From positions 1-28,368 of the IMG/VR virus record IMGVR_UViG_3300012942_000111: 28,368 nt of DNA. The stretch is one strand, 5' to 3'. The translations under genes were made by a program, and so were the position numbers. This DNA is from a virus (Duplodnaviria; Caudoviricetes). Position 1 is the first letter of the stretch, and the number at the start of each line of letters is the position of its first letter. Shown here one piece after another: positions 1,291 through 18,546 of the stretch. The notes under the pieces were generated by a model. It ran no database searches. It was not told the DNA's origin and worked only from the letters and a program-made list of their open reading frames with translations.

Positions 1291-1354
1291 GTTCCAATAT
1301 TTTATTTGGAACAATGGAATAAATTCCTATTTTTGTGTCACACTTTGACACAAA
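1291..1354. promoter_or_regulatory. immunity region: three palindromes (candidate operators) and rightward early promoter
   Basis: GTTCCAA-N8-TTGGAAC (1291-1312), GGAAT-AA-ATTCC (1316-1327), TTTGTGTCA-N5-TGACACAAA (1332-1354). TTTG (1305-1308)-N19-TATTTTTG (1328-1335) matches the Bacteroidota -33/-7 consensus. Confidence 0.75.
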
Positions 1355-1361
1355 CCAAACA

Positions 1362-1571
1362 ATGGACAAAGGTATGTTAAAAACTAAATACGACGCAATA
1401 AAGGGACAGGTAATTAAAATGCTGATTCTCGAAACAGGATTCTCTCAATCATTTGTAAGGCAAGCGATCAGTGGCGATAGAGATAGTGAATTAGCCGTAG
1501 AGATTAGAAAGGAATTCAAGAAACGGTATGAAGCAGCATCTGCCGCTCTAAAACCAAAAAAGAGCAATTAA
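1362..1571 (+). CDS. Cro/Ner-like small HTH regulator
   Basis: Divergent from the repressor and upstream of the transposase; HTH-like LILETGFSQSFVRQAISG. Start is uncertain (1362 or 1374). Confidence 0.7.
   Translation: MDKGMLKTKYDAIKGQVIKMLILETGFSQSFVRQAISGDRDSELAVEIRKEFKKRYEAASAALKPKKSN
1367..1374 (-). promoter_or_regulatory. candidate -7 element (TACCTTTG) of the leftward repressor promoter
   Basis: Matches TAnnTTTG on the minus strand about 95 nt upstream of the repressor ATG. Confidence 0.5.
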
Positions 1572-1598
1572 TAGTAAAACTAACCAAAAACCGCTCAT

Positions 1599-3647: not shown

Positions 3648-3877
3648 TGGCACTAAAGAAAATATTCGTGGCCTATGTGGACATCAAAACAAGGCCGGAT
3701 TCAAAAAAGCAACCCAGAAAAGGCAGACTTAAAATAATGGTTCTCGCTGAGGAGTATTGGAAAGTACAGCCAACAGTTGAAAACCACTTAAAAGCCTTTT
3801 TAAAAGAGGAGGAGGCTATAATCACGCGCATTAAACTTACTCACATCAGCTACGACGCCTTTATTCAGGCCAAATAG
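3647..3877 (+). CDS. hypothetical protein
   Basis: TAATG coupling with the transposase; 76 aa, basic. Confidence 0.65.
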   Translation: MALKKIFVAYVDIKTRPDSKKQPRKGRLKIMVLAEEYWKVQPTVENHLKAFLKEEEAIITRIKLTHISYDAFIQAK

Positions 3878-3893
3878 CACAAAACACAACACT

Positions 3894-4790
3894 ATGCTTA
3901 CTATTTCTCCAGAACAAAAAAAGATGATCGTAGCTGCACTATTAGAACAGCGCGAGAAGTTCGGCGGCACTGACGCCCAGTTTGCAAAACAATTTGATAT
4001 CAACGGTACTGTGTTCAGCCGGTTGAAAAATGACCACGACACCGCCGGTCTACTTAAGGAAGCGCAATGGCTGAATATTGCCCGCGAACTGGATATGCCC
4101 CTCAACGAACGCAAATGGGTTATGGCTAGAACTGAGGTCTATAATATGATCGAAGAGGATGTGTTATTCTGTAAAGAATACGCGAAAGGCCGCATCTGTG
4201 TAGATGACTGTGGTATTGGCAAAACATACTCTGCCAAATACCTATCAAGGAAGTTGGATAACTGTTTTTACGTTGATGCCAGCCAGGCAAAGACCAAACA
4301 GCTGTTTATTCGCCTGCTTGGTAAAGCTATCGGCGTGGACGCCCAAGATAAACTGGCAAAGGTCAAGGCGAACATAAAATATGCCCTTGGTATGCTGCCA
4401 AATCCAATCATCATTATTGATGAGGCGGGCGATCTGGAATATAATGCCTTTTTGGAGCTGAAAGAGTTCTGGAACGCCACCGTAGGTGCCTGCGGCTGGT
4501 ATTTGATGGGAGCCGATGGCCTTCGCGCTAAGATAGAACGTGGCATTTCTAATAAAAAAGTCGGATACGCTGAGTTGTTCAGCCGATATTCAGAAAGCTA
4601 CACGACAATTGTTCCTGCTGAAAAGAGCGAAAAGCTTTCCTTTTATAAGAAGTTGATCACCGATGTCCTGACCCCTAACATGAAAAATAAGACAAAGCTC
4701 AACGAAATCGTTAGGCGGTGCCTGAATAATGACAGCGGCAATATTGGCGGTCTGCGTCGTGCTGAATCCCTGTTAATCCTCAACCAGTAA
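3894..4790 (+). CDS. MuB-like AAA+ transposition ATPase
   Basis: Walker A-like DDCGIGKT, Walker B IIIIDEAG, arginine-finger-like ELFSR, N-terminal HTH. Confidence 0.88.
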   Translation: MLTISPEQKKMIVAALLEQREKFGGTDAQFAKQFDINGTVFSRLKNDHDTAGLLKEAQWLNIARELDMPLNERKWVMARTEVYNMIEEDVLFCKEYAKGRICVDDCGIGKTYSAKYLSRKLDNCFYVDASQAKTKQLFIRLLGKAIGVDAQDKLAKVKANIKYALGMLPNPIIIIDEAGDLEYNAFLELKEFWNATVGACGWYLMGADGLRAKIERGISNKKVGYAELFSRYSESYTTIVPAEKSEKLSFYKKLITDVLTPNMKNKTKLNEIVRRCLNNDSGNIGGLRRAESLLILNQ

Positions 4791-4831
4791 TCAAATCCAC
4801 TTTTTCTAACCTTAAAATCATTTTAAAAATT

Positions 4832-5455
4832 ATGGTTCGCGCCCTGAGTACTAAAAATCTGTTTGACAAACAATACAAGACATTCGGTTTTGACGGGCTT
4901 TGGGCGCAGGCAATGGGACAACCCACCCGTAATGGGATTTGGACTATTTACGGAAAGGAAAAGCACGGTAAAACGTGGTTTACACTAATGATCGCAGACC
5001 TGTTGAGTGAATTTGAACGAGTTCTTTACATAAGCGCGGAGGAAGGCATGGACAAGCCCTTTGTGGACGCAGTAAAAAGGGCTGGAATTAATGCCAGCAA
5101 GTCCAGGTTGAACTATCTGGAATACTTACCCATTGATGAGCTAGAGGAGCGCCTTGATAAGCGCAAAAGCCCAAATGTGATTGTCCTGGACAATTGCACT
5201 ATATACGCAGATGATTTTAAAGGCGGGGTGATTAAAAAACTCCTGCATAAATACCCTGACAAACTATTCATCTATGTTGCCCATGAAGAGAAAAACGAAC
5301 CGTACCCCGCTTTGGGTAAGATGGCAAAGAAGCTCAGCAAAATAATAGTCCGGGTGCAGGGGTTAACGGCCTTTATATCTGGCAGATGTCCAGGCGGCAC
5401 AATAAGTATTGACGAACAGAAGTCCCAACTGTTTTGGGGCACTATTGAAAACTAA
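4832..5455 (+). CDS. second P-loop ATPase (RecA/Sms-like)
   Basis: Walker A GKEKHGKT, VLYISAEEG, Walker B VIVLD. Confidence 0.82.
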   Translation: MVRALSTKNLFDKQYKTFGFDGLWAQAMGQPTRNGIWTIYGKEKHGKTWFTLMIADLLSEFERVLYISAEEGMDKPFVDAVKRAGINASKSRLNYLEYLPIDELEERLDKRKSPNVIVLDNCTIYADDFKGGVIKKLLHKYPDKLFIYVAHEEKNEPYPALGKMAKKLSKIIVRVQGLTAFISGRCPGGTISIDEQKSQLFWGTIEN

Positions 5456-5467
5456 TAAACACATTTT

Positions 5468-5722
5468 ATGAAAACAAGAAGTTACATGGTGGTTTGGCTG
5501 CCAAAAGATGATGAGGTTATTGACTTTGGGACAAACTTTGGCGATGACCAACAAATGTTCAATGACTACGATGAGGCGTTTGATACGTTTAACGCTGTTG
5601 TTCATTCGGCCATTGGCGAAACCTTCCGCCAGCCAAAGGGTGAACAGCCTATTCGGGCAAGCCTGCCTTACCAATATCTGGAACTGTGGATAATTGAACG
5701 GACAACTGATTTAATTAAATAG
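5468..5722 (+). CDS. hypothetical protein
   Basis: In-operon ORF with tight spacing. Confidence 0.65.
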   Translation: MKTRSYMVVWLPKDDEVIDFGTNFGDDQQMFNDYDEAFDTFNAVVHSAIGETFRQPKGEQPIRASLPYQYLELWIIERTTDLIK

Positions 5723-5724
5723 TT

Positions 5725-6171
5725 ATGATACAAGAGAATATAGGCAATTCCGATGAAAAATTAGCAGCCTACCTAAAGGAGGTTGAAAAAAACGCATTTA
5801 TATGCCTTGGGGTTCGTGTGAAATTACATGCGGAAAAGGTGGTAAACACAGTTGACATGAATTTCATTACCACGTTAGTCGCAAATTCTTTGGAAATACC
5901 ATTTAATAAAATCGTGAACTCGGCCAAGGGAGACATGGAAGTGTCCGCAGCTCGTCACATTGCGATGTTCCTGATCAGGAAATATATACCAGGTGTGACA
6001 TTGGCTGAAATTGGCCGATTCTTCAAACGGGACCATACCACCATCATGTATGCCATTGACCACATAGAAGGGGTGGTATTTGTAAGAGATGCGATAGCCG
6101 ATAAAGTTTTGAAATGCGAAAATAAACTTGTTCAATTAATAGCAAACAATCATGAGAGCCAGCTACATTAA
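5725..6171 (+). CDS. DnaA C-terminal (domain IV) HTH protein
   Basis: ARHIAMFLIRK...TLAEIGRFFKRDHTTIMYA resembles the DnaA domain IV signature; no AAA domain. Confidence 0.85.
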   Translation: MIQENIGNSDEKLAAYLKEVEKNAFICLGVRVKLHAEKVVNTVDMNFITTLVANSLEIPFNKIVNSAKGDMEVSAARHIAMFLIRKYIPGVTLAEIGRFFKRDHTTIMYAIDHIEGVVFVRDAIADKVLKCENKLVQLIANNHESQLH

Positions 6172-6529
6172 ACCCAATAGCCACACCTACGTTAAGGCGG
6201 CTTCATTCGTTGAAACTGTCAGGGAGGTACTTTGGATTGCTGAAATAACCGACGGATACCGAATTAAGGTATTATTTGAGGTCGGTTGTATGATCGCCGA
6301 AAAATGCGCTCCAAAATTTGCCAATAAGTTGTTGACTGAAAGGGATTATGGCTTCTGGGCGTGGTGGCTTGTTGAATTTCTTCGTGATGATGAAGCCCTG
6401 CTTTATTACCATCCAGAAGCCTTCCAGCAGCATTCTTACCGAACAATAAAGGCATCTATGCTAAACGACAAGGATGTTTCAGCAAATTTTGACCGCTTTC
6501 TATTAAACATTATCGAACCAAGATTTTAA
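6152..6529 (+). CDS. hypothetical protein
   Basis: Overlaps the previous gene; Trp-rich FWAWW motif. Confidence 0.7.
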   Translation: MRASYIKPNSHTYVKAASFVETVREVLWIAEITDGYRIKVLFEVGCMIAEKCAPKFANKLLTERDYGFWAWWLVEFLRDDEALLYYHPEAFQQHSYRTIKASMLNDKDVSANFDRFLLNIIEPRF

Positions 6530-6533
6530 GACC

Positions 6534-6845
6534 ATGAATAAATTCAAAGTGAAATTATCAGCCTTCCAGATGTCTGCCTTTCAGCAACTACTTGAGCATG
6601 TCCTATTAGATTGGGATTATACGGTTGAAGAATGGATTTTCAAATATGCACTTATTGAATGTCTTACCACTGTAAAAAAGAAACTGGCCATTCCTGAATT
6701 AAAGAAGGACTTCAAATTAACCTTTTCGCCAGTGCAAGCCCAGGCTATCTATTGGCTTTGGCAGGAGATGGGCGATCAGGCTACAAACGATTTCTCTAAT
6801 AAGCTGCATATGACAGCACTCGAAATACATCAACAATTTAGTTAA
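6534..6845 (+). CDS. hypothetical protein
   Basis: In-operon ORF, 103 aa. Confidence 0.7.
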   Translation: MNKFKVKLSAFQMSAFQQLLEHVLLDWDYTVEEWIFKYALIECLTTVKKKLAIPELKKDFKLTFSPVQAQAIYWLWQEMGDQATNDFSNKLHMTALEIHQQFS

Positions 6846-6861
6846 TACAAAAATCAAAAAG

Positions 6862-7395
6862 ATGGCAACAAAAGCAAAAACAAAAAAGAAAGTCTACGTC
6901 AATGTAACGTTGGACGAGGCGAACGCCGCCAGCGAGAAGTACTCCACTACTCAAAATAGCCTTTTCAAGGTTGAGGCTAAAATGAATGAGGAGCTAAACA
7001 AGGTCAAAAGCAAATATGTAGACCAGATTAGTGAATTGAAAGAAGACCTTGTCGAACCAGAAGAGATACTTGAATCCTTTGCCAATGCGCAAAAATCGAC
7101 CTGGGGTAAAAAGAAGAGCCTTGAACTGTTACATACAGTGATTGGATTCAGGACTGGTCAACCAAAGGTGTCCAAGTCCAAAAAGTTTACCTGGGATGCA
7201 GTAACTGAATTGCTAAAGAAAAACGCTGCATTCAAAAAGTTTATTAGAACCAAGGATGAAATCAACAAAGAAAATATTCTGGCTCTTAAAAATGACAAAG
7301 ACAAGAAAATGTTGGATTTGTTGAAAGAAGAGGCATTCGTTTTTGTTGAACAGGATGAAAGTTTCTTTGTTGAGGCAAAGTTAGAAGAAGTTTAA
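6862..7395 (+). CDS. gam: Mu Gam-like host-nuclease inhibitor
   Basis: N-terminal coiled coil, IGFRTGQPKV, FIRTKDEINKE and C-terminal VEQDESFFVE motifs; position in the early operon. Confidence 0.82.
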   Translation: MATKAKTKKKVYVNVTLDEANAASEKYSTTQNSLFKVEAKMNEELNKVKSKYVDQISELKEDLVEPEEILESFANAQKSTWGKKKSLELLHTVIGFRTGQPKVSKSKKFTWDAVTELLKKNAAFKKFIRTKDEINKENILALKNDKDKKMLDLLKEEAFVFVEQDESFFVEAKLEEV

Positions 7396-7411
7396 TGATT
7401 AGTAAGTATAG

Positions 7412-7437
7412 GCGCCCTGTGTCTACGGGGCGCATTT
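7412..7437 (+). terminator. GC-rich hairpin, weak terminator or attenuator
   Basis: GCGCCCTGT-GTCT-ACGGGGCGC followed by a short T-run. Confidence 0.5.
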
Positions 7438-7467
7438 AAAACAATTTTAAATATCAATTAAATACTC

Positions 7468-7560
7468 ATGAAAATTTTAATCATCGCCATCGCCACTTGG
7501 CTAATAATTGACGGTCTGGGTGGAATTCACGAGGCATATTCAAAAAGGAGGCACAAATGA
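7468..7560 (+). CDS. 30-aa hydrophobic peptide (not in ORF track)
   Basis: MKILIIAIATWLIIDGLGGIHEAYSKRRHK; its stop overlaps the next start (ATGA 7557-7560). Confidence 0.6.
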   Translation: MKILIIAIATWLIIDGLGGIHEAYSKRRHK

Positions 7561-7745
7561 CCCTATATAAAGCAATCATTCTTATAGTTTCCCGTATCAT
7601 ATTCTTTTACGGAATATTCGCCTTGTTGGCTACAGATTTAAACCCATTTGAGTGGCGTGCCTGGGTACGCATCATCTTCGTAATAATCATTCTCGGTATA
7701 ACAACCGTCGATATTCACGAGCAAATAGAAGGTAATGGCGAATAA
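7557..7745 (+). CDS. small two-TM membrane protein
   Basis: Two hydrophobic stretches flanking DLNPFEWRAW. Confidence 0.7.
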   Translation: MTLYKAIILIVSRIIFFYGIFALLATDLNPFEWRAWVRIIFVIIILGITTVDIHEQIEGNGE

Positions 7746-8184
7746 ATACTCATCCTTTTTTGCCGCCTATAATGCCAGCGTTAAACGGGGCAATCCCTTA
7801 TCTAAAGAGGAAATGATTAGTGAGTTCACCAACGGCCAAACAACCTCTTTAAAAGAATTGTCATGGCATGAATTACAGGAACTTACTAGAAAGCTCAATT
7901 ATACCAGTGGCAACACGGCACCTGCTCCTAAATACAATACAGTTGAAGATCGGATGCGCAAGGCCATTATAGCCATTTTCCACCGAATGGATAGAAGTCC
8001 AGCTGATGCAAAAGCCTGGGCGGAGAAACAAGGCGCAAAGGGCAATAAGCGCAAGTTCAATGATTATTCCACACAGGAGCTCTACATATTGATTGGTGTG
8101 GCTGAAATCATTCTTTTTGACTGGCAAAAAGGCATCCGTCGACGGATGGAAACAATTGGAGATATTAAAAATAATAATCATTAA
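7735..8184 (+). CDS. GemA/Mu gp16-like protein
   Basis: TTSLKELSWHELQEL and FNDYSTQELYILI helical motifs; synteny with the Mu early region. Confidence 0.55.
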   Translation: MANKYSSFFAAYNASVKRGNPLSKEEMISEFTNGQTTSLKELSWHELQELTRKLNYTSGNTAPAPKYNTVEDRMRKAIIAIFHRMDRSPADAKAWAEKQGAKGNKRKFNDYSTQELYILIGVAEIILFDWQKGIRRRMETIGDIKNNNH

Positions 8185-8213
8185 TAATCGCCGAAAGGCA
8201 CAAAATCCACAAA

Positions 8214-8693
8214 ATGCAAGAAGTTTTAACAATCGAAAAAAAGAATGCCATTGTGGCCCACAATGAGGCTAACGACAAAGGCAAAAAAATGCTTGAGAAC
8301 CTATTTGGAAGAAAGATATTCTTGGGCAATGTAATGGACAGGATTAAAACCTTTGAAGATGCATGCGCTGAATTAGGTATCCACTGGGGAGACGCCTGCC
8401 CAAAAGTTCAAAAGAATGGCGACTATGGGGCAATTGTATCTTTCGCACAAGCACTGATCGTCACCAGAGCGCTTAATGAAGGTTGGAAGCCTGATTTTAA
8501 CAACGGCCAATGGGATAAGCATTACCCCTACTTTGATATGCGTTCTTCCGCTGGCGGTTTCCGGTTCTACGGTTCCGGTTGCGTCGACGACGGTACGTTC
8601 GTCGGCGCCCGCCTTTGCTTTAAATCCGCAGAGTTGGCAAGATATGCCGGAACTCAATTTGAGGACATTTATAAGGGTTTTATGACCTTCTAG
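8214..8693 (+). CDS. DGR target protein 1 (159 aa)
   Basis: Contains VR1 in frame (SSAGGFRFYGSGCVDDGTFVGARLC); paralogous to the next ORF. Confidence 0.93.
   Translation: MQEVLTIEKKNAIVAHNEANDKGKKMLENLFGRKIFLGNVMDRIKTFEDACAELGIHWGDACPKVQKNGDYGAIVSFAQALIVTRALNEGWKPDFNNGQWDKHYPYFDMRSSAGGFRFYGSGCVDDGTFVGARLCFKSAELARYAGTQFEDIYKGFMTF
8542..8619 (+). repeat. DGR variable repeat VR1
   Basis: 78-nt ungapped match to TR 9171-9248; 15 mismatches, all at TR adenines. Confidence 0.96.
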
Positions 8694-8742
8694 GTCGCAT
8701 TATTATACTACACATCAGTTTTTAATCATTAATAAACACAAA

Positions 8743-9138
8743 ATGAAAATTTCAGAAAAAAGCACACAAGCCTTTGCAGCGGCTTGTCAAAAGTTGAAAA
8801 TTGGGACACAACTCCCAAATGTAAGCATGGTAAGACCGGATTTAGGTCTTTATCTGACGGCTCATTACATGCTTGCCGTAATAATTGAAGCGGGTAAGGA
8901 TGGGAAAGAATATGACATTACCAACCATTCAAAACCGAAATGGCAACCTTGGCACGTTGCAGATGACGGATATACTCCTGGTTCTTCCGCTGGCGGTTTC
9001 CGGTTCAGCGTTTCCGTTTACGTCTACGACCTTACGTTCGTCGGCGCCCGCCTTTGTTCGAATAGTGAAGAGGAGTCCGACGAAAACGCCCAGAACTATC
9101 CAGATCTCTGGGAAATCATTACCCTGATCGTCAAATAA
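8743..9138 (+). CDS. DGR target protein 2 (131 aa)
   Basis: Contains VR2 in frame (SSAGGFRFSVSVYVYDLTFVGARLC). Confidence 0.93.
   Translation: MKISEKSTQAFAAACQKLKIGTQLPNVSMVRPDLGLYLTAHYMLAVIIEAGKDGKEYDITNHSKPKWQPWHVADDGYTPGSSAGGFRFSVSVYVYDLTFVGARLCSNSEEESDENAQNYPDLWEIITLIVK
8981..9058 (+). repeat. DGR variable repeat VR2
   Basis: 78-nt ungapped match to TR; 14 mismatches, all at TR adenines. Confidence 0.96.
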
Positions 9139-9148
9139 GATAAAAATA

Positions 9149-9332
9149 GGTTGTGTGCTGTTGGCCTGTAGTTCTTCCGCTGGCAGTTTCCGGTTCAACG
9201 ATTCCGATTACGACAACGACAATACGAACGTCAGCGCCCACCTTAGATGTTTTTGTACAGCACAGACCTTGCCCGCATGGCAGAAAATAACACTTTTTAA
9301 AAGGACGTTGGTAGCGAAAGCGAAAGCGTCCT
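9149..9332 (+). ncRNA. predicted structured DGR template RNA (TR plus flanks)
   Basis: TGTGCTGT (9154-9161) pairs with ACAGCACA (9257-9264) across TR; hairpins TGCC/GGCA (9270-9282) and AGGACG/CGTCCT (9302-9332). Confidence 0.65.
9171..9248 (+). repeat. DGR template repeat TR
   Basis: Intergenic and rich in AAC/AAT/GAC/GAT (19 adenines in 78 nt); about 100 nt upstream of the RT. Confidence 0.96.
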
Positions 9333-9350
9333 GTTAAATCAAAGGCTCAA

Positions 9351-10412
9351 ATGAAACGCGAAAGCAATATATATTATAGGATTTGCAACATGGATAATCT
9401 GTATTTGGCGGATGCCATTGCGCAAAAAGGCAAATCAAAGCAATCCGACGTTATTCGGCATAACCAAAATGCTGAGAGCAACCTATTTATGCTTTATAAC
9501 ACTTTGATGGATAAGAAATATAACACTTCCGAATATTTGACCTTCACGATTCATGAACCAAAAGAACGGGTAATATTCAGATTGCCCTATTTCCCTGATA
9601 GAATTGTTCACCACGCTATTATGAATGTGCTTGAGCCAATCTTCACTAATATGTTTACCGCAGACACTTACAGCTGCATTAAAGGTAAAGGCATCCACGC
9701 CATGTCCAGAGGAATCATTAAGGCCTTAAAAGATGCGCCTAATACCGGGTATTACCTCAAATTGGACATTAAAAAGTTTTACCCATCCGTTGATCACAAA
9801 ATTTTAAAAAGCCTTCTACGTAGAAAATTCAAGGATAATGACCTATTGGATTTACTGGATGGAATAATTGATTCCGCCCCCGGACTTCCAATAGGTAATT
9901 ATTTGAGCCAATATTTTGCAAATTTCTACCTGACATATTTTGACCATTGGTTAAAGGAGGTCAAAGGTGTCCGGTATTATTTCCGCTATGCCGATGACAT
10001 GGTCATTTTCGCATCAAATAAAGCCGATTTACACAGGCTGCGGATTGATATAAGCGAATATCTTTCAAAGGAGTTGCATTTGGCCGTAAAAGGCAATTAT
10101 AAGGTATCGCCATTGGATGACAAGAGCGGCTTAGATGTGTGTGGATATGTTTTCTTCCGTCATTACACTTTAATGCGCAAAAAGAATAAGCAAAATTTTG
10201 CACGGGCTGTGGCAAAAGGCAAACCGATGCAGACGATAAACAGCTATTTGGGTTGGGCAAAGCATTGTAATAGTAAACACCTTACAAAAAAATTAATGAT
10301 TAAATATGAAAGAGTTCAACGAGCTAGGCATTACTCCTCCAGCACTCAAAACGTTTGTGGGAGACAAGATCAGCATAAAACGTGTGCTGAAAAAGAAGAT
10401 AATTATACATGA
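9351..10412 (+). CDS. DGR reverse transcriptase
   Basis: EPKER, FPDRIVHHA, LKLDIKKFYPSV, GLPIGNYLSQ (DGR-type IGxxxSQ) and YFRYADD motifs; no maturase or endonuclease domain. Confidence 0.96.
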   Translation: MKRESNIYYRICNMDNLYLADAIAQKGKSKQSDVIRHNQNAESNLFMLYNTLMDKKYNTSEYLTFTIHEPKERVIFRLPYFPDRIVHHAIMNVLEPIFTNMFTADTYSCIKGKGIHAMSRGIIKALKDAPNTGYYLKLDIKKFYPSVDHKILKSLLRRKFKDNDLLDLLDGIIDSAPGLPIGNYLSQYFANFYLTYFDHWLKEVKGVRYYFRYADDMVIFASNKADLHRLRIDISEYLSKELHLAVKGNYKVSPLDDKSGLDVCGYVFFRHYTLMRKKNKQNFARAVAKGKPMQTINSYLGWAKHCNSKHLTKKLMIKYERVQRARHYSSSTQNVCGRQDQHKTCAEKEDNYT

Positions 10413-10620
10413 TTTCGCAGTTAAGCCTTCAAAGTATGGAGCAAATAAGGACTGCCTTCATTTGCAGATTGAGTTTGAAGAAGAAAGAAGGGTGATGTTT
10501 ATTACAGCGACTTATTTGACTGAGGTACTAAATGTTATCCCCAAATCATCCTTTCCATTTGAAGCAACAATAGTAAACCCTGAAGGGTATTTTAGATTTA
10601 AACAAAAAGAGGAAAAATGA
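10306..10620 (+). CDS. small basic protein, candidate non-Avd DGR accessory factor
   Basis: Overlaps the RT 3' end by 107 nt; beta-strand-like pattern; ATGA-coupled to the next gene. The function is an inference. Confidence 0.6.
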   Translation: MKEFNELGITPPALKTFVGDKISIKRVLKKKIIIHDFAVKPSKYGANKDCLHLQIEFEEERRVMFITATYLTEVLNVIPKSSFPFEATIVNPEGYFRFKQKEEK

Positions 10621-10961
10621 GAAAAGCATACATCGCCGGTAAAATTACCGGATTGCCCCTTAAAACGGCTGAATCCCATTTTCGCGATAAGGAACGCGAA
10701 TTGTCAGCCCGTGGCTTTGAAGTGTTCAACCCATTTGCCGAGGTCAAAAAGCTAAATCTACAGCGCATGTCTCAAGGACTTAAGGAACTAACCGACCAGG
10801 ACAATAGAAAGGAGATAATGCGTTTTTGCATAATCAATATGCTGGACTGTGATGAAGTTCACCTATTGGCGGATTGGGAAGATAGCCGTGGAGCATGGGA
10901 TGAACGGATTATGGCTCATAAATATGGAATTGACGTTGTTTACCCTAAATTGGCAAAATAA
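10617..10961 (+). CDS. DUF4406 / nucleoside deoxyribosyltransferase-like protein
   Basis: KAYIAGKITGL, VFNP, LLADWEDSRGAWDE motifs. Confidence 0.82.
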   Translation: MRKAYIAGKITGLPLKTAESHFRDKERELSARGFEVFNPFAEVKKLNLQRMSQGLKELTDQDNRKEIMRFCIINMLDCDEVHLLADWEDSRGAWDERIMAHKYGIDVVYPKLAK

Positions 10962-11398
10962 TGGAGCAGATTATTTATACTTTGTCATCTACTGGGTTCC
11001 CAGGTGAAGTTGTTTTTAAGTTTGACCAATCCGGTCTTATGGTGGGTTATGATGTAACTGGGGCCAATTTGAATGAGCAGCAAAAAAAGTGGCTCTTAAG
11101 AGATCGGCCTAGGACTTTAAACGAGCTTAAAGAGCTTTTAAAGCAATCCAGAACCGCCCATCTGACCCAGAGAAAGGATTACAAGGAGAATGTCACCTTT
11201 GATGAATTTTGGACAGCATATGATTATAAAGCACTTAGCAGTAAGATTAAGACCAAGAAGATATGGGACAAAATGAAGCAGATTGATCGAGACCGGGCTT
11301 TTAACTTCATAGGCAAGTATGACCGGATGATTTCAAAAGAAGGCATTGCTAAAAAATACGCCACCACCTATTTAAATGACCGGTTATGGGAAAATTAA
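10961..11398 (+). CDS. hypothetical phage protein
   Basis: TAATG-coupled; C-terminal TFDEFWTAY...YATTYLNDRLWE resembles phage replication-protein C-termini. Confidence 0.7.
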   Translation: MEQIIYTLSSTGFPGEVVFKFDQSGLMVGYDVTGANLNEQQKKWLLRDRPRTLNELKELLKQSRTAHLTQRKDYKENVTFDEFWTAYDYKALSSKIKTKKIWDKMKQIDRDRAFNFIGKYDRMISKEGIAKKYATTYLNDRLWEN

Positions 11399-11604
11399 TC
11401 GAAAAAGCATGCAACAAGCATTGCTATATAAGCAAAAAGGATGCTTTGACCAGGTTAAACGAGCTGCGCAGACATAAGGCTAAATTCATTGGCGGTCGCC
11501 TCCAGAAGCGGAAAATTAAACACAGGGCCTGCCGAGCTTATTTTTGCCTCCAGTGTCAAAGCTGGCATTTAACATCAAAAAATAATTACATTTGTGAAAT
11601 CTAA
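11386..11604 (+). CDS. small basic Zn-finger-like protein
   Basis: RAYFCLQCQSWHLTS motif. Confidence 0.65.
   Translation: MGKLIEKACNKHCYISKKDALTRLNELRRHKAKFIGGRLQKRKIKHRACRAYFCLQCQSWHLTSKNNYICEI
11583..11594 (+). promoter_or_regulatory. -7 promoter element TAATTACATTTG (moron 1)
   Basis: TAnnTTTG ending 18 nt before ATG 11613; identical 12-mer at 13551-13562. Confidence 0.6.
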
Positions 11605-11612
11605 AAACTAAA

Positions 11613-12143
11613 ATGATGAAGAGAATACTGGCACTTTTTGTAATTCTGACCCTCGCTGTTGTGGCAGCAAACGCCCAAAAGACAACTTGGCTTATGGGCT
11701 TAAGTAAGGACAGTGCAAAAGTTTTATGCGACAATATTGTAAATAATATGAGAGGGGGATTTAAGTTCAAATATGCGGAGCCTGATACATTGAATAATAG
11801 ACCAGATATATATATATTTTATTATAAATCAGATAGTATCAAAACTGACGCTTCACTTATGACAGTAACTTTTGATGTAAGAAATGAAGGCGGTAATCAA
11901 GCATTAGAAATTCAAGGATCAGATCGATATTATTTAGGGTCTTTTATCGGGAGATATTTGGACGTTTTCCCATTTTGGAAAGAATACGTTGACCCAAATG
12001 CAGATAAGATTGAATTAAGCAACAAAAGCATATCTACTACAAAAAAGATATATTACCCAAATGACCCCAAAAATAATTTTCGACTTGTATATTTAATCCC
12101 AAGCGAGGACAGATCATCGTATGAGATAGAAATTAAATTCTAA
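11613..12143 (+). CDS. exported protein with Sec signal peptide (moron)
   Basis: MMKRILALFVILTLAVVAANA-Q signal peptide; visibly AT-rich; own promoter element and terminator. Confidence 0.8.
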   Translation: MMKRILALFVILTLAVVAANAQKTTWLMGLSKDSAKVLCDNIVNNMRGGFKFKYAEPDTLNNRPDIYIFYYKSDSIKTDASLMTVTFDVRNEGGNQALEIQGSDRYYLGSFIGRYLDVFPFWKEYVDPNADKIELSNKSISTTKKIYYPNDPKNNFRLVYLIPSEDRSSYEIEIKF

Positions 12144-12175
12144 TTATTACACATTCAAATGTGGAAACGTTTATT

Positions 12176-12208
12176 AAGCCATCTGTCATATTGCCGGATG
12201 GCTTTTTT
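12176..12208 (+). terminator. intrinsic terminator
   Basis: AAGCCATCTG...CGGATGGCTT followed by a T-run. Confidence 0.75.
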
Positions 12209-12220
12209 ATTTTTGTGGTA

Positions 12221-12433
12221 ATGGCTTACAATCGCAATAATTACTTAAGGAGCATTAAATATATTGTGGAGGTATATACGTCCGTTAAGCATCATGATGT
12301 ACCCGATACCTTTATTGTGCGGCATGAATTCCCAAAGCACAATATTTTTATCAGTTATCGCAAGTGGATGAATATCAAAAACATGAAACAAAGAGAGGTT
12401 AATCCACGGCAATTGAGCTTGTTCGCAAATTGA
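12221..12433 (+). CDS. candidate late-transcription activator (positional analogue of Mu Mor/C)
   Basis: Last plus-strand gene of the early region; small and basic; ends QLSLFAN. ATG 12221 preferred because the longer ORF crosses the terminator. Confidence 0.5.
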   Translation: MAYNRNNYLRSIKYIVEVYTSVKHHDVPDTFIVRHEFPKHNIFISYRKWMNIKNMKQREVNPRQLSLFAN

Positions 12434-12469
12434 TTTAAATTTTTCTCATATAAGCAGTTAGTTTTGGTT

Positions 12470-12498
12470 AAAGCCGGTGTTTCTACACTGGCTTTTTT
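12470..12498. terminator. terminator between convergent operons
   Basis: AAAGCCGGTGT-TTCT-ACACTGGCTTT plus T-run. Confidence 0.8.
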
Positions 12499-12997
12499 AC
12501 ATTCTGGCCACATTGAGCTTGACCGATGCTGCTGGTGTTCTGTTGGTCACGGTTTGTGCATACCTGTCTTGCCAGTTGCATGTAAAGGTGATAGTGCGCA
12601 TTCTGATACCGTCGTCGCGGATTGCCCGGCCAAATGAAGTTCTGACAAATCCTGAATAATCCACCCCACCACTCCAGCCATGAAGGGCCTTGTATATATC
12701 CTGAATGATGTCGTAAATCCTCATTTCATTAGCTGTTAGGTCAATTGGTGCTTTTCTGCTGACGTTTTGCGTCATGTCGGCCACCGATATGACTATCTGT
12801 AATAATCCCTCCTGGACCAAATTCCCGTCGTTGGTGAATTGGCCACTCATAATATCGACCAGGGCACACGGAAATTTAACCGGTGGTCTGTCTCCGTTCA
12901 CATATAGTGATAACTGGCCCCAGTCCTGTCCAATGTATTTTAAAGCGGGAACTTCGGATTCGAGCCTACCTTCTATGTCGCTGACGATTTTTTTCAT
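12497..12997 (-). CDS. Mu gp37-like tail terminator / neck protein
   Basis: VPALKYIGQDWGQL, PPVKFPCALVD, IYKALHGW; last gene of the head operon. Confidence 0.65.
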   Translation of the reverse strand: MKKIVSDIEGRLESEVPALKYIGQDWGQLSLYVNGDRPPVKFPCALVDIMSGQFTNDGNLVQEGLLQIVISVADMTQNVSRKAPIDLTANEMRIYDIIQDIYKALHGWSGGVDYSGFVRTSFGRAIRDDGIRMRTITFTCNWQDRYAQTVTNRTPAASVKLNVARM

Positions 12998-13548
12998 TAT
13001 TTCTGTTTTAAAGCGTTATATATTTCTTTTTCCAAATCATTGATTTGCTCATCCACTGCCTTTTGTACTATTTGGTGTACTCTGGGATGGTCACCAATAA
13101 ATTGCCGAGCCGGTATCTTTATTTTGGAGCCGACTTTCATTAAAGCCAGATTCTTATAAAATTCTGCCTCTGCTGTAAGGCCCCTGTTTTTAGCGGTGTT
13201 TCTTGTGCTACCGTCCTTTTTCTTGTCCATACCACCAGTAAGCTCATAATACTTGGCCCAGAAGAATTTTTTCATCTTCATTGTTACGGTGATTTCTCCG
13301 CCTGAATTCTGAATATCAGCATATGGTTCGGTAGATTCCCAGTGTATTTCATCTGAATGAACGCTGGGGTTGATACTGCGACGTAATTTGCCGCTCCTGA
13401 TCAGCTGCGACCCTCGTGGATTGTGATGGCCTTCTTTTGGCCATGCTCGGTCAAAAAAGGCCTTTCGTTGAAAATTCCGGTCAAATTCGTCTGTTAATTC
13501 AACTTTCAAGTCAGTTAAAAGACGCTTTAAAAAACTATTATAATCCAT
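12997..13548 (-). CDS. virion morphogenesis protein (Mu gpG / P2 gpS-like)
   Basis: LIRSGKLRRSI, PYADIQNSGG, IPARQFIG motifs. Confidence 0.82.
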   Translation of the reverse strand: MDYNSFLKRLLTDLKVELTDEFDRNFQRKAFFDRAWPKEGHHNPRGSQLIRSGKLRRSINPSVHSDEIHWESTEPYADIQNSGGEITVTMKMKKFFWAKYYELTGGMDKKKDGSTRNTAKNRGLTAEAEFYKNLALMKVGSKIKIPARQFIGDHPRVHQIVQKAVDEQINDLEKEIYNALKQK

Positions 13549-13550
13549 TT

Positions 13551-13562
13551 TAATTACATTTG
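13551..13562 (+). promoter_or_regulatory. -7 promoter element TAATTACATTTG (moron 2)
   Basis: TAnnTTTG ending 17 nt before ATG 13580. Confidence 0.6.
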
Positions 13563-13579
13563 AATCTTAAACTACTTAT

Positions 13580-13855
13580 ATGAATATCGAAAACTATAAT
13601 GTTGACATACAAGAACTTTTTGAATTTATTTTGACAAGAATCGCCTTAACCGATGCAAGAATAACCATATTGAGTGCCCAGGTGTCTGCTTTTTTACAAT
13701 ATCAACATCCCGACTTTGTTGAGAAGACGTCAACGGTTGCTCCAAAGCTTGAAGAAGTTGGCGCCGAACATCTTCGGTTAATGCTTGAAGGGCTTTCTCT
13801 TCAAAGTCAGGAAATGAAAGGGATGATAGTAGCCTTGATGCAGAAATCTCAATAG
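13580..13855 (+). CDS. hypothetical protein, antisense-oriented moron in the head operon
   Basis: Fills the gap between two minus-strand genes without overlap; has its own promoter element. Confidence 0.7.
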   Translation: MNIENYNVDIQELFEFILTRIALTDARITILSAQVSAFLQYQHPDFVEKTSTVAPKLEEVGAEHLRLMLEGLSLQSQEMKGMIVALMQKSQ

Positions 13856-13871
13856 TTTGCTCCATAATCTG

Positions 13872-14786
13872 TTATTTATCTTTTGTGGTTAGGGTTTTAC
13901 GTGCCGCTTCCTTATCTTCATTTCCTTTTGCCGTGTATGGATGGTTCGGCGGGAATATTACCTTTTGTTGTCCAGGGTTATATCTAAATATAGCTGCTGC
14001 ATTATTGTTGTCTTTATCCAGCCTTGTTGTGGCCTCGTCACCCAATTTATTGGCAAATTTGCTATCCGTGATGGTGTATTTGCCAGATTTAACCAGAACG
14101 GCCAGACAGCGGCATCCCCAATCATTTGGAGGATAATATTTTGTCCAAAATTTATCCGTGCGCGGGAGTGTGATATCTGCGAGCTTTTCGTGAGCTGGCC
14201 GAACGTGATCATCGCCAGCCGTCCTATATTGCAGGTCGTAATCACCCTCGGTTTGTTCCTGCTGTAGCCATTTATCGGCCATCTGAGCGGAACCGACTGC
14301 ATAGTTATACTCAGACTCCAGGTATCGTTGGTTATAATTAGAATTGATGTCGGCTATGTCTCGTTTGAACTCCTCAAAAGGCTTGATTGTCCCCTTTGTA
14401 TCTTTAAGTAGCTGAGCGGCTTCCTTCAGGGAAGCATAGGACTTCATTCCAGAAAATATAAAGATGTCGTTTTCAAACGAGTTTCTGATATTGTCAGATA
14501 TAACTGTCTTTATCTCGGACATGCTTTCTTTCAGGACATCAAATGTTGCTTTGATTAGCCCCTTAATGGGCTTCTCGGCCATCATTTTGCCGTCCATTTT
14601 GCCAGCAGCATGAATATGCTTCAAAGCCTTTTCAAAGGCTTTTTCAACCGTTTTAAAGGTCTTTTTATTGGCTGAAAGGTGGGCATGGTCACAACCTCCA
14701 AAATACAGGTTTTGGATGTTGGCATGAAGCCTATCAAATTTTAGCGGGCGAACGCTTGGCTTTCCGTCCGCCCCTACATGAAAAAA
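13872..14786 (-). CDS. MuF / gp30 (SPP1 gp7-like) minor head protein, probably reached by -1 frameshift from portal
   Basis: YRTAGDDHVRPAH, FWTKYYPPNDWGCRC motifs. The frame stays open for 54 codons upstream of the TTG at 14624, up to 14786, with no ATG. Confidence 0.85.
   Translation of the reverse strand, partial: FFHVGADGKPSVRPLKFDRLHANIQNLYFGGCDHAHLSANKKTFKTVEKAFEKALKHIHAAGKMDGKMMAEKPIKGLIKATFDVLKESMSEIKTVISDNIRNSFENDIFIFSGMKSYASLKEAAQLLKDTKGTIKPFEEFKRDIADINSNYNQRYLESEYNYAVGSAQMADKWLQQEQTEGDYDLQYRTAGDDHVRPAHEKLADITLPRTDKFWTKYYPPNDWGCRCLAVLVKSGKYTITDSKFANKLGDEATTRLDKDNNNAAAIFRYNPGQQKVIFPPNHPYTAKGNEDKEAARKTLTTKDK
14742..14786 (-). other. predicted -1 programmed ribosomal frameshift signal (portal to MuF)
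   Basis: T_TTT_TTC (14786-14780), 6-nt spacer, stem GGGCGGACG/CGTTCGCCC (14773-14765 / 14754-14746). Confidence 0.72.
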
Positions 14787-16039
14787 TCAGCAGACAGATT
14801 ATTGTTTTTCTGCTCCTCTTTTTTCTCATCTGGCGGTTGGATGGGACTTTGTCGGTTCCCAATAACTTCAATTCCGAATTTATCTTTAATCCAGTCGTCG
14901 GCGATGTCCTTATAAGGAAGCAGCCCTTTGACAAAGTCAAATAATTGTTTGATGTCCTCAGCTGGGGAAAACTCAAATGTAAGGTCACCTTTCAGAACGC
15001 CAATCTTTTGAAGTGCCGGTATAATGATGGTATTCCAGTCTGACTCCACCGATTCCATATCAGATTGGACTAGCAGCCATAAAACGTCCTGACTACTCTG
15101 GTCTTTGTTAAAACTCCCGTGCTTCGTGTCCTGGCCGATAACAGCCCCAGAAATTAGAAGGCTTATTTGGTTATCACAAAGTCTGATCAGATTGTTGTAC
15201 ACATCGCCGGTGGTGGTCACGCCATCCGCAAATTCGAACTCTTCTGTATCGTCAATGATAAACCAAGCCGCTGCTCCCATGTCGGCCATCATTTTCTCCG
15301 CTCTTCTGAGTGCGCTTGGGTCGGTGGTGTCTGTTTTCATGTACCTTGGTGGGATGCCATAGATTTCGCAGAGCTCAGACCAGCAGGATTGTGCAAATTT
15401 CTTAAATAAAACATGCGGCACGGCCTTGTTTAATAGACCCATCAGATCGTCGCTAAGGAACTCCAGCACCCACGTACCATATTCAGGCAGCATGCGATAC
15501 TCTAATGAACTGGTATCGTCTGTATAATCCCTATAGAATTTGCCAGTTTGCGGCACTATATTGGTGCGCGGTATGTTTTTTGTCCGCAATTTGTCATCTT
15601 CCCACACCAGTTCTACCGCTGAATAGCCCAGGTATTTTTTATCGAGTGCTGCTGTGGTCAGGCCCCGATAATAGGTTGATTTTTTCAGCATTTCCGTTTG
15701 TTCCTCGTCAATTTCGCCATTTGGCTTTTTGAGCGTGAATTCGCAGGTGAATAATTGCTGTTTGCGGTTTTCAATCTGGCTAGTTAATAGCGCATCCAAA
15801 GAGATATCATTTAACAACAGCTGCAAAGGCCATGTTTTTGTATCCTCCGCGCTGTTAAATTGATTGATTGCTCTTTTCCAATTACTGATATCCTGCCGGG
15901 TCATAAAAACACTCTTTTCGACCGTTGGCAGAATTCTCCGCTTTGACCCCTTGGATTCGTTGGAATTGTTGTCGGCCAGTGTCCTTGATGGCGGATTTGC
16001 GCCCTTGATGGCGGATAGAATATTATTGAGGTAACTCAT
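14774..16039 (-). CDS. portal protein (Mu gp29 / DUF935-like)
   Basis: LGYSAVEL, WSELCEIYGIPPR, QISLLISG motifs. Start moved to MSYLNN (16039), just after the gp36 stop. Confidence 0.87.
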   Translation of the reverse strand: MSYLNNILSAIKGANPPSRTLADNNSNESKGSKRRILPTVEKSVFMTRQDISNWKRAINQFNSAEDTKTWPLQLLLNDISLDALLTSQIENRKQQLFTCEFTLKKPNGEIDEEQTEMLKKSTYYRGLTTAALDKKYLGYSAVELVWEDDKLRTKNIPRTNIVPQTGKFYRDYTDDTSSLEYRMLPEYGTWVLEFLSDDLMGLLNKAVPHVLFKKFAQSCWSELCEIYGIPPRYMKTDTTDPSALRRAEKMMADMGAAAWFIIDDTEEFEFADGVTTTGDVYNNLIRLCDNQISLLISGAVIGQDTKHGSFNKDQSSQDVLWLLVQSDMESVESDWNTIIIPALQKIGVLKGDLTFEFSPAEDIKQLFDFVKGLLPYKDIADDWIKDKFGIEVIGNRQSPIQPPDEKKEEQKNNNLSADFFM

Positions 16040-16055
16040 TGTGGTACTATTTGGG

Positions 16056-16529
16056 TTATTCGTGAATGAATTTCTTTCTACTTCCAAATCGGAATGGTGT
16101 GTATTCGTCTGAACCGTTTTCCGGTGGCGCTGGAGGTGTGAGAACTGGAAGGTCAAGGGTGATATCCCCTTTATTGACTTTCTTTAAAAAATCGATGGCT
16201 CTATCGAACCGATCTTTTGCCTGATCATAAATGATGTCCAGATTGCAAAGCCGGGTGATATTCCAGAATGCTACATTTTTGCAGTATTCCAATAGCAGGG
16301 CATTGCGCTCAGTGCCAGTCGCAGCAAAGACCGCATCCACATCATAGCGAATTCTTCCATCCAGCCATTCTCTTTTATTGTTGGGTCGTAGGTAGCTTTT
16401 CACCAGGTCTACGGCTGACGAAATAGCCATGTACACAATGTCGTCGTCGTCTTCTGTTATCTGCTCAATCTGATAAGCATAAATGACCGATTTTAATTCC
16501 TCTTTTGTTAAAAATGTTGTTTCTGGCAT
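16056..16529 (-). CDS. Mu gp36 / DUF1320-like head-tail adaptor
   Basis: FLTKEEL start, AVDLVKSYL, RFDRAIDFLKKVNKG motifs. Confidence 0.8.
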   Translation of the reverse strand: MPETTFLTKEELKSVIYAYQIEQITEDDDDIVYMAISSAVDLVKSYLRPNNKREWLDGRIRYDVDAVFAATGTERNALLLEYCKNVAFWNITRLCNLDIIYDQAKDRFDRAIDFLKKVNKGDITLDLPVLTPPAPPENGSDEYTPFRFGSRKKFIHE

Positions 16530-16534
16530 TTTGA

Positions 16535-18043: not shown

Positions 18044-18546
18044 TAGTTGCCGAGTCTATGTTGAATAAATAAATCCTGAAGGCGAATAAGTTTCTTAAGA
18101 AATGCCTCTTCGATGCCTTCCGTACTTCTTCGCTCCAATAACCAGTTTTGGAAGTCCATAAAACACATGATCTCGTCATCGACGGTATTGCGCTGCTTAA
18201 GTGTTTTAAGTTGCGCCACTGCTTTGGCAAATGCATCTGCGTTAAAGTCGTCCTCTTCCAGCATGAGATTTATTTTTCCAAGTGCTTTAACGATAAGCTG
18301 GTCCATGCTGATGGTTTTGGCCGCTCTTTTGGCTTCCCATTCATCTTCCTTTTTCCATGCTGATATGGTTTGTGGAGAAACGCCAGTTCTTTGGCTGATT
18401 TCGCCCTGTGAGACTTTTTGCATATAGAGCATAAAAGCGAATTCCCGCATGCCGTCGTTTTGATTCCTCACGCGCTTTTTCTTTGGTGTCGCCTTTTTCA
18501 GTGGAATCACTTTAGGCGCCTTCTTAACTGTTTTTTTTGTGGCCAT
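18043..18546 (-). CDS. terS: terminase small subunit (HTH)
   Basis: HTH SQGEISQRTGVSPQTISAWKKEDEW; TAATG-coupled to terL; likely start MATKK at 18546. Confidence 0.75.
   Translation of the reverse strand: MATKKTVKKAPKVIPLKKATPKKKRVRNQNDGMREFAFMLYMQKVSQGEISQRTGVSPQTISAWKKEDEWEAKRAAKTISMDQLIVKALGKINLMLEEDDFNADAFAKAVAQLKTLKQRNTVDDEIMCFMDFQNWLLERRSTEGIEEAFLKKLIRLQDLFIQHRLGN

Follow-up and report, generated by a model that had tools for sequence, protein, structure and literature searches.

An Avd-less DGR and its two adjacent targets among the early genes of a Mu-like phage

The cassette among the described systems

According to Roux 2021, the targets of phage DGRs are for the most part predicted to be tail proteins, and those DGR variable regions that are annotated have been placed in C-type lectin (CLec) folds. 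Non-structural targets of phage DGRs have also been reported (Benler 2021, PMC8008677; Dahlman 2025, PMC12629997), and in these two papers a role in conflict was proposed for the second target of the Quimbyvirus/LoVEphage type. Cassettes of the kind described here have already been catalogued in the supplement of Wu et al. 2018 (PMC5758913), whose rows t120 (Galbibacter sp. ck-I2-15) and t121 (Pedobacter arcticus) are assigned to Lineage 3, architecture A1 and target code f4; at least two f4 rows are filed under CLec3, with the remark that they align poorly to the other CLec3 targets. The same paper terms PAG genes tenuous and treats Avd-independent retrohoming as an open question. Its passages on f4 say nothing of a phage context, of how large the family is, of its fold or of pairing.

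The window, i.e., the whole stretch of 28,368 nt under analysis (IMG/VR record IMGVR_UViG_3300012942_000111; Caudoviricetes, Duplodnaviria), belongs to a Mu-like transposable phage, as indicated by the Pfam and PHROG profiles of a transposase, a MuB-like ATPase, Gam and Mu-type portal, F and gp36 proteins. Its DGR cassette (Table 1) corresponds to the Lineage 3/f4 description of Wu et al. 2018 (PMC5758913) in the TG-TG-TR-RT order, the short template repeat (TR), the lack of avd and of a post-VR stem-loop, the small GSRL-type targets and the Bacteroidota affiliation; the f4 targets, of 156 and 123 aa, share the same motifs when compared by eye. Unlike the tenuous PAG of that paper, the PAG1-related gene found here tracks the reverse transcriptase (RT) in hundreds of loci. 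The CH1 proteins of the same authors were also considered as equivalents of these targets and were rejected, since their sequences look unlike them.

In common with the DGRs of BPP-1 (mtd-avd-TR-brt) and of hankyphage, which is likewise a transposable phage of Bacteroidota, the cassette exhibits the signature of adenine-specific TR-to-VR mutagenesis, the RT motifs, a structured TR-RT spacer and fixed 3' TR-VR differences. Unlike in those systems, Avd is missing, the putative homing signal lies inside the coding sequence, the VRs have no clear stem-loop after them, and the adjacent targets are not tail fibres in the tail module (the window ends in the baseplate, so that the tail-fibre genes are outside view). 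The LoVEphage protein QVQ57199 is a homologue of the targets: the target profile aligns to it from end to end (E 9e-35), and it bears a VR of LoVEphage's TR; one TR serves there both a tail fibre and a member of the target family. The neighbourhood of this distal target (methyltransferases, RtcB, opposite strand) fits the description of Quimbyvirus in Benler 2021 (PMC8008677). In Quimbyvirus, as described there, and in LoVEphage a tail-fibre DGR has just one such additional target, at a distance, whereas here it is an adjacent, specialised pair, and the family provides the only target in all five relatives checked (5/5). Given Wu et al. 2018, Benler 2021, Dahlman 2025 and the LoVEphage homologue, the rarity implied by the preliminary description was overstated. 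No paper dealing with the fold or the pairing of the family was found; the family may already be listed in subscription papers or in the supplementary material to Roux 2021, Benler 2021 and Dahlman 2025.

Table 1. Features of the DGR cassette and of its surroundings (positions in the window)
Feature	Positions	Strand	Basis or remark
CI-like repressor	673-1314
Rightward early operon of Mu-like phage (transposase, MuB-like ATPase, Gam, DUF4406)	1335-12495	+	Pfam/PHROG matches
Gam	6862-7395		Pfam
ORF without Pfam match	7735-8184		phrog_14123 (function unknown)
Target 1, 159 aa, long type (N-terminal helical extension + core)	8214-8693	+	phrog_11581 family
VR1 (target 1 residues 110-136)	8542-8619	+	Ungapped alignment to TR
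Target 2, 131 aa, short type	8743-9138	+	Paralogue of target 1
VR2	8979-9058	+	Alignment to TR; first-noted extent 8981-9058
5' arm of RNA stem enclosing TR	9149-9161	+
TR (19 adenines in 78 nt)	9171-9248	+	Ungapped alignment to VRs
TR-RT spacer RNA: 3' arm of stem, small conserved hairpin, longer hairpin	9258-9350	+
DGR RT, 353 aa, IGNYLSQ and YADD	9351-10412	+	RVT_1 E 2e-16; phrog_1423 E 2e-116
RT-linked accessory gene, 104 aa, pI 9.2, predicted OB-fold	10306-10620	+	Homologue of PAG1-like genes and of RT C-terminal extensions
DUF4406	10617-10961		Pfam
Terminator-like site, end of early operon	12470-12495
Neck/tail-completion gene	12997-13548	opposite
Tail sheath	starts 21673

Template repeat, reverse transcriptase and accessory gene

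The TR differs from VR1 at 15 positions, all of them TR adenines (15/15; hypergeometric chance 9e-13), and from VR2, over 8981-9058, at 14 positions, again all adenines (14/14; 1e-11), which confirms the earlier observation that the 29 mismatches fall on TR adenines without exception. VR2 reaches two nucleotides further 5', and its mismatches then become 15, all at TR adenines (15/15). Five of the mismatched positions of each VR (9185, 9233, 9240, 9245 and 9247) are near-fixed throughout the family, so that about 11 codons vary freely, corresponding in VR1 to residues 119-129 of target 1. Judging from this conservation, the five differences are of the scaffold/IMH type rather than free variation, and the 3' end of the TR, with its family-fixed VR differences, would be IMH*-like. 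Among 251 TR-VR pairs preselected for at most three non-A mismatches (94 targets failed this filter), 68.5% of 4,831 TR adenines were changed, vs. 1.3% of 11,735 other sites. The VRs are located 24-27 codons upstream of the target stop, which places the putative homing signal within the coding sequence; neither a convincing hairpin nor a clear stem-loop was detected after the VRs, in an inspection that did not use shuffles for comparison.

A covarying RNA stem encloses the TR: its 12 pairs are 97% paired in 42 sequences, eight of them exhibit two-sided changes, and the result was matched in none of 500 shuffles (0/500). Covariation was adopted because the duplex energy of the TR flanks proved a weak test (27/85 at z < -2, with z -0.4 for the flanks in the window); the folding energy of the whole region is not unusual either (z 0.23). 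The TR-RT spacer RNA gave a sub-threshold Rfam match to RT-17.

The RT, reported from the beginning as intact and bearing IGxxxSQ and YADD motifs, is indeed encoded by an uninterrupted ORF, and the gap between target 2 and the RT is of only 212 nt; no Avd-like family was found among the 46 ORFs scanned. The short gene overlapping the end of the RT gene, which the preliminary description does not mention, travels with the RT, is lost with it and is sometimes fused to it, as the comparison of loci shows: it is placed directly 3' of the RT in 151/164 RT loci (8/164 have no separate copy), it is missing from 34/35 uncut target loci devoid of RT, and 11 of its 12 longer homologues carry RVT_1. The PAG1-like form precedes the RT in 65 of the 80 loci found with it, and 54 of these loci have no member of the present target family nearby. 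The model of the accessory protein (pLDDT 86.4) retrieves a fold list dominated by OB/SSB chains, Rim1 among them with a modest score (Z 5.2, rmsd 2.5 over 67); the best Z is 5.9, but at an rmsd of 13.3, and Foldseek gave no match at E <= 0.001. A lead from the Atlas to the Phi29 SSB, with a low recognition value, extends over 44% of a single cluster. The tblastn search in annotated phages gave no match and the PDB sequence search nothing meaningful; no Pfam family recurs among 129 accessory sequences, and no SSB-like DGR accessory was found in the openly accessible literature. Since it is basic, predicted to adopt an OB-fold, lost with the RT and fused to it elsewhere, the 104-aa protein is likely a substitute for Avd.

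Concerning the activity of the element, the protein P0001 shares 95% identity with target 1, and all eight differences lie within residues 119-129 and are compatible with the TR. In two relatives (L166 and L167; about 79% nucleotide identity), the TR is preserved to within 3/78 nt and the VRs are different, and in the gut nearly every copy has its own VR. The expected variation of the VRs across relatives, with constant TR and scaffold, is thus borne out in assembled sequences, and the reading of the cassette as a genuine DGR that was active recently and has non-tail targets in an early operon is supported, the same placement being found family-wide. Phages frequently survive the deletion or replacement of the TR-RT portion; as an example, 38/64 copies of one gut-phage gene have no RT directly downstream and retain the targets, from which it follows that ongoing diversification can be dispensable. 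Another locus (L216) harbors eight RT-less paralogues of the target family. No TR match was detected outside the cassette in five Mu-like relatives (5/5), four of which are only 61-66% complete.

Family, fold and surroundings of the target pair

The two targets are paralogues (profile-profile E 1e-52), a relationship absent from the preliminary description, and belong to a family of 5,231 clusters at 50% identity with no Pfam entry. A long and a short target form a conserved pair upstream of the TR-RT in Bacteroidota phages; at least two family genes were found in 137 of the 149 untruncated RT loci, and a single one in 10/149. On the target tree the label for position switches 13 times, vs. 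87.6 when shuffled, and for 249/262 targets the nearest neighbour is the same-position gene of another locus, which shows that the two types are old and separate lineages. Two-domain fusions occur in 18 of the best 150 representatives, nine with type 1 followed by type 2 and nine of the same type (some may be stop-loss artefacts); the same-type fusions and the single-target loci indicate that a strict heterodimer is not required. The predicted complex of the two targets scored 0.37, vs. 0.02 for the best control (homodimers were not among the controls), with at least 87% of the contacts shared between runs and a partner pLDDT of at least 78. The mark used was reached by 116/157 solved and 2/215 mismatched pairs; among the pairs reaching it, only 18 solved and both mismatched ones score 0.60 or less, so that the pairing is weakly suggested by this model.

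The targets are predicted to be mostly helical, with the VR modelled as a strand followed or preceded by a flexible loop on display; the model of target 1 (pLDDT 83.5) contains one hairpin. Among solved structures, its sequence profile gave one match (E 0.088), Foldseek none at E <= 0.001, and VIA none at Z >= 2 on Foldseek's 245 chains and a best Z of 3.3 on 48,161 representatives; the absence of a solved match does not prove that the fold is new. No CLec chains are listed among the structure matches of target 1, whereas Benler 2021 (PMC8008677) calls the domain a C-type lectin. The profile match to the CLec3 domains of tail fibres is confined to residues 112-137, the 26 VR residues being alignable to tail-fibre VRs, and residues 1-108 share no similarity with tail-fibre domains (probability 0.13). 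The proteins returned by the viral structure library were all uncharacterised ones of phages, crAss-like phages contributing several, and the Atlas clusters are unnamed; crAss001 matches were dropped because they extended over no more than about 35 residues at the N-terminus of a distant paralogue. The proposed lack of a signal peptide agrees with hydropathy, on which the assessment was based: the best 19-residue means are 1.05 and 1.14, compared with 2.5 and 2.2 for two membrane/secreted proteins of the window.

The targets had been placed between gam/GemA-like and DUF4406 genes, more than 12 kb from the tail module. The Gam and DUF4406 assignments stand, while the GemA-like label is not supported, the ORF in question having as its sole match a PHROG of unknown function; the sheath gene is 12.5 kb from target 2, but the neck/tail-completion gene is nearer. 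A promoter scan with a non-Bacteroidota consensus gave results at chance level (29 found vs. 29 expected). On a wider scale, 150 flanking genes were sampled from 25 loci picked at random among the 83 eligible; a PHROG match was obtained for 58 of these genes, the top matches being 18 for DNA metabolism, three for methyltransferases and 30 for unknown functions; tail genes were absent (0/150) and one connector gene lay on the opposite strand. The cassette adjoins primases, helicases, RecT/Sak4, MuA/MuB and polymerase genes, and is present in many unrelated phage backbones and replication modules, whose hosts extend across Bacteroidota and related phyla. The contexts whose annotation was inspected are all of the temperate type (transposase, integrase or prophage loci in Bacteroidota genomes).

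Possible roles of the diversified pair

The reading that we somewhat favour is that an intact Avd-less DGR in the early operon diversifies a two-chain intracellular binder of a variable host partner, e.g., a defence component. The DGR is ordered as target 1, target 2, TR, RT and accessory gene, and one TR serves both paralogous targets through adenine-specific changes; the accessory protein would bind the TR-RNA/cDNA in Avd's place. The targets would be cytoplasmic, made early and paired with each other, and each might sample about 2x10^8 loop sequences, thus keeping hold of a fast-changing host protein; their function might be anti-defence or host takeover, as the preliminary description proposed. 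It is possible, though doubtful, that the system is antibody-like in the full sense, with one template diversifying a heterodimer of two non-CLec chains (that same number of loops each) against host defence and an OB-fold subunit replacing Avd in retrohoming. By analogy with LoVEphage, a tail-fibre VR in the missing distal part might be a third target of the TR. If the favoured reading is true, a large, compact and possibly non-lectin scaffold tolerating intracellular hypermutation would widen the roles of DGRs, and the two genes would provide a way into a conflict between phages and Bacteroidota hosts that lacks an explanation so far, human gut prophages included. The RT-linked gene with its predicted OB-fold is a candidate for Avd-independent retrohoming, a question that the TR-RT-accessory unit of about 1.5 kb makes testable.

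Other explanations have to be weighed against a host-directed binder. The pair might consist of prophage sensors or inhibitors of the proteins of competing phages, the DGR supplying a repertoire against invaders; the temperate-type contexts speak for such a superinfection defence, and the VR differences among nearly all gut copies would be expected of a repertoire. It is unlikely, since the CI-like repressor would probably silence the operon in the lysogen, on the model of Mu and hankyphage, and since no effector domain was found in the best 150 representatives, judged from their lengths and numbers of matches, and no recurring Pfam family among 79 members. That the pair tunes phage replication, transposition or transcription to different hosts by binding a conserved housekeeping machine with a surface varying between Bacteroidota species, thus setting a post-entry host range, would suit the adjoining replication and recombination genes and the breadth of hosts; it is quite unlikely, the cassette being found in unrelated replication modules and the eight RT-less paralogues of a single locus fitting conflict better than one housekeeping partner.

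The targets could also be part of the virion, as decoration, ejection or receptor-binding proteins whose genes merely happen to lie in the early region, in line with the tail proteins predicted for most phage DGRs in Roux 2021, with the VR alignable to tail-fibre VRs and with a homologue in phage Versailles annotated as 'tail protein'. That gene is located among recombination genes, so its label probably derives from the VR; this, together with the lack of tail genes in the neighbourhood, the unrelated N-terminal part and the sharing of the cassette by related phages with unrelated virion types, renders a virion role improbable. The frequent loss or replacement of the TR-RT in phages that persist and the many unrelated backbones might instead point to a mobile, largely self-serving DGR module, with a minor target function and a mostly near-neutral VR variation. 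This is likewise improbable: at AAY codons (n = 1,310) Pro accounts for 0.4% and Tyr, the commonest residue, for 16%, as raw frequencies without a mutational null, and the targets remain intact after RT loss, have diverged into thousands of clusters and have been duplicated in the absence of the RT.

The DGR cassette and its diversification

The template repeat (TR) and the two variable repeats (VR1 and VR2) form the strongest direct-repeat family of the window. The preliminary description of a two-target diversity-generating retroelement (DGR) held on this point: the TR aligns without gaps to VR1 with 15 mismatches and to VR2 with 14, every one at an adenine of the TR, which has 19 (chance 9e-13 and 1e-11, respectively), and the reverse transcriptase (RT) ORF runs without interruption and contains the motifs IGNYLSQ and YADD. 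The VRs also vary among relatives. P0001, a protein 95% identical to target 1, differs from it at eight residues, all in 119-129 and all attainable from the window TR; the relatives L166 and L167, about 79% identical around the cassette, have TRs within 3 of 78 nt and different VRs. One target gene was compared across a gut prophage group: its 26 RT-linked copies carry 24 different VRs and 7 different scaffolds, and its 38 copies without an adjacent RT carry 23 VRs, several of which are common to more than one locus. The comparative evidence indicates that the DGR of the window is real and active.

Compared with the TR, the VRs of L166 and L167 appear to have gained 3 nt and lost 6 nt in frame; loop length varies as well. 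In one gut prophage group (L091, L112 and L121 versus L099 and L197), TR, RT and accessory gene have been deleted or swapped for an HNH-like gene (recognized by eye), both targets being kept; after this loss, some VR alleles are common across loci, as if frozen.

Coordinates of the cassette and of related features
Feature	Sequence	Positions	Strand
Target 1 (T1, 159 aa)	window	8214-8693	+
VR1	window	8542-8619	+
Target 2 (T2, 131 aa)	window	8743-9138	+
VR2	window	8979-9058	+
TR	window	9171-9248	+
RT	window	9351-10412	+
Accessory gene (104 aa)	window	10306-10620	+
RT/accessory overlap	window	10306-10412	+
176-aa protein	window	11613-12143	
Terminase, portal and neck genes	window	12497-18567	
Eight target paralogues	L216	7685-16660	
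Third family member	L011	310-759	
Third family member	L030	1986-2384	
Third family member	L072	15903-16388	
SSB-like gene	L072	12553-13107	
VR with indels	L166	894-975	
VR with indels	L167	3067-3140	
Split RT	L163	5565-7352	

Read in frame, S-A-H-L-R of the TR corresponds to G-A-R-L-C in both VRs, and residue 115 is S in the former and G in the latter. Among 251 TR-VR pairs from relatives, a set from which a filter removed 94 targets, the adenines at these differences were changed in 236/236, 239/240 and 34/35 cases (the first two counts being partly circular, because the anchor motif demanded G and R), and the adenine at the 5' G (residue 115) in 138/143. By analogy with BPP-1, these near-always-changed adenines probably mark homing-type (IMH/IMH*) or scaffold-fixed differences. 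There remain 14 free adenines, in codons 119-129, from which the codon table gives about 2x10^8 possible peptides per target.

A paired target family and its fold

The two targets are paralogues (profile-profile E 1e-52), both belonging to phrog_11581, and matched no Pfam family. With the family profile, 5,231 clusters (50% identity) were retrieved, 3,789 of them at E<=1e-10, and an RT is present in 164 of the 212 de-duplicated loci with family genes. Where the RT locus is not cut by a contig end, at least two family genes lie upstream of the RT in 137/149 loci, one in 10 and none in 2. First and second positions constitute separate lineages (13 label changes on the tree versus 87.6 when shuffled), the nearest neighbour being the same-position gene of another locus in 249/262 cases and the gene's own partner in one; since kin share position labels, this split demonstrates old divergence, not co-evolution. 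Among the best 150 representatives, 18 are two-domain proteins (nine type 1 then type 2, eight type 1 twice, one type 2 twice). The predicted T1:T2 complex scored 0.37, the best control 0.02; the mark used is reached by 116/157 solved and 2/215 mismatched pairs, but in the range of 0.37 by only 18 solved pairs and both mismatches. Contact agreement was at least 87% and partner pLDDT at least 78. The prediction hints that the two proteins might pair. Three loci have a remote third family member, located 3-6 kb away from the cassette and bearing a VR of the same TR.

The AlphaFold model of target 1 (pLDDT 83.5) contains four helices (9-31, 47-54, 71-88, 139-157) and one hairpin (103-108, 117-123), with the VR on the second hairpin strand and a low-confidence loop. 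Neither model nor profile matched any solved structure, and the structural matches are uncharacterised phage proteins only. Roux et al. (2021; PMC8144416) assign annotated VRs to C-Lec folds and most viral targets to tails. Compared with 57 tail-fibre C-terminal domains of related DGRs, similarity is confined to residues 112-137, and residues 1-108 gave a probability of 0.13 (from a template alignment of low diversity). The simplest reading is that the VR is borne on a different scaffold, although this may instead be a highly reduced lectin.

TR RNA and the RT-linked accessory gene

A 12-pair stem encloses the TR and is followed by a 4-pair hairpin. In an alignment of 42 of the 85 usable intergenic regions, 97% of cells are paired and 12/16 pairs show two-sided changes, a level reached by 0/500 shuffles; the structure was derived from the window's own fold, which biases it favourably over slid controls. 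The TR-RT spacer resembles Rfam RT-17 below threshold (E 0.003).

The accessory ORF overlaps the RT end and lies directly after the RT in 77/80 loci found via the RT. Of all 164 RT loci, 151 have it behind the RT and 2 ahead of the TR; in 3 it is cut off, and 8 lack a separate copy. It is absent from 34/35 uncut target loci without RT. In phage BT-TP2 the accessory domain is fused to the RT C-terminus, and 11/12 longer homologues carry RVT_1 (N-terminal in one), the twelfth being an RT fragment. A divergent form precedes the RT in 65/80 loci found with that form, the profile having missed it in 13; compared by eye, it resembles the PAG1 of Wu et al. These sequence comparisons show that the gene is linked to the RT. 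The protein is basic (pI 9.2; median 9.0 across 131) and modelled as a small beta protein (pLDDT 86.4). Its best structure matches have modest scores, and from their titles we take them to be OB-folds, mainly SSBs; the Atlas pointed weakly to Phi29 SSB. The protein likely has an Avd-like role, in place of the usual DGR helper protein.

In the window the RT frame enters the accessory gene by 107 nt, the two genes merely abutting in most relatives; translational coupling, or a frameshift yielding an RT-accessory fusion, is possible. The LoVEphage (L163, MW660583) RT is split across several frames, as described for Quimbyvirus, with the accessory domain at the end of the last. Four cassettes lacking the gene after the RT (L072, L074, L076, L153) lie in DNA-polymerase-type replication modules; that of L072 includes a gene presumably resembling a phage SSB, which might act as a stand-in.

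Genomic setting and possible function

In the proposed mechanism, the RT would copy the stem-closed TR RNA and make its errors at adenines, the OB-fold protein likely serving as a subunit, and the cDNA would then substitute for either VR. The products would likely be early, cytoplasmic and paired, binding a variable partner.

In 25 random loci of 83 eligible, 58 of 150 flanking genes matched PHROGs (E<=1e-8; categories by top hit, hand-counted): 18 DNA metabolism, three methyltransferases, one integrase, two moron, three other and 30 unknown, with no tail gene and one connector on the opposite strand. Neighbours are co-oriented with the cassette in 461/498 cases. The window itself contains no tail-fibre genes, because it stops within the baseplate genes; in five Mu-like relatives (61-93% complete, covered almost in full, baseplate/tail-like ORFs identified by eye) the TR has no match beyond the cassette. 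LoVEphage, by contrast, has a single TR for two targets, a tail collar fibre and, about 15 kb off on the other strand, a family member. Eight paralogues are scattered among small genes of L216, an 18-kb contig without RT, an expansion by duplication that would be an alternative to DGR diversification. Phage-host conflict is the class of function that we prefer over its rivals, because the family persists after RT loss, because L216 expanded to eight RT-less paralogues, and because the LoVEphage member lies close to methyltransferases.

Non-tail DGR targets are already precedented: distal non-structural targets close to counter-defence genes were described by Benler et al. (2021; PMC8008677) and Dahlman et al. 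(2025; PMC12629997). Wu et al. (2018; PMC5758913) catalogue the same type of cassette for Galbibacter and Pedobacter under CLec3, with poor alignment, report avd missing from Lineage 3 and term PAG genes tenuous. The target family was not found in the parts consulted of 10.1101/2024.11.15.621889, PMC13739734, PMC12875486, PMC12135933, PMC12386605, 10.64898/2026.05.08.723808 and PMC8525569, and a literature search, which among supplements took in Wu's, returned nothing on a specialised pair, an unmatched fold or an RT-linked OB-fold accessory.

The window belongs to a Mu-like phage, as seen from its genes for a contractile sheath, Mu-type portal, Gam, MuB-like ATPase, transposase and CI-like repressor. 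The target alignment matched 76 genome loci, nearly all Bacteroidota, with a few Ignavibacteria/Chlorobi and one other; the host is probably a member of Bacteroidota. The 176-aa protein at the end of the early operon has a hydrophobic N-terminus; its weak AcrF31 match is under the cut-off and probably due to chance. The early operon faces a block of leftward genes for terminase, portal and neck, and an endolysin gene is placed between the capsid and sheath genes.
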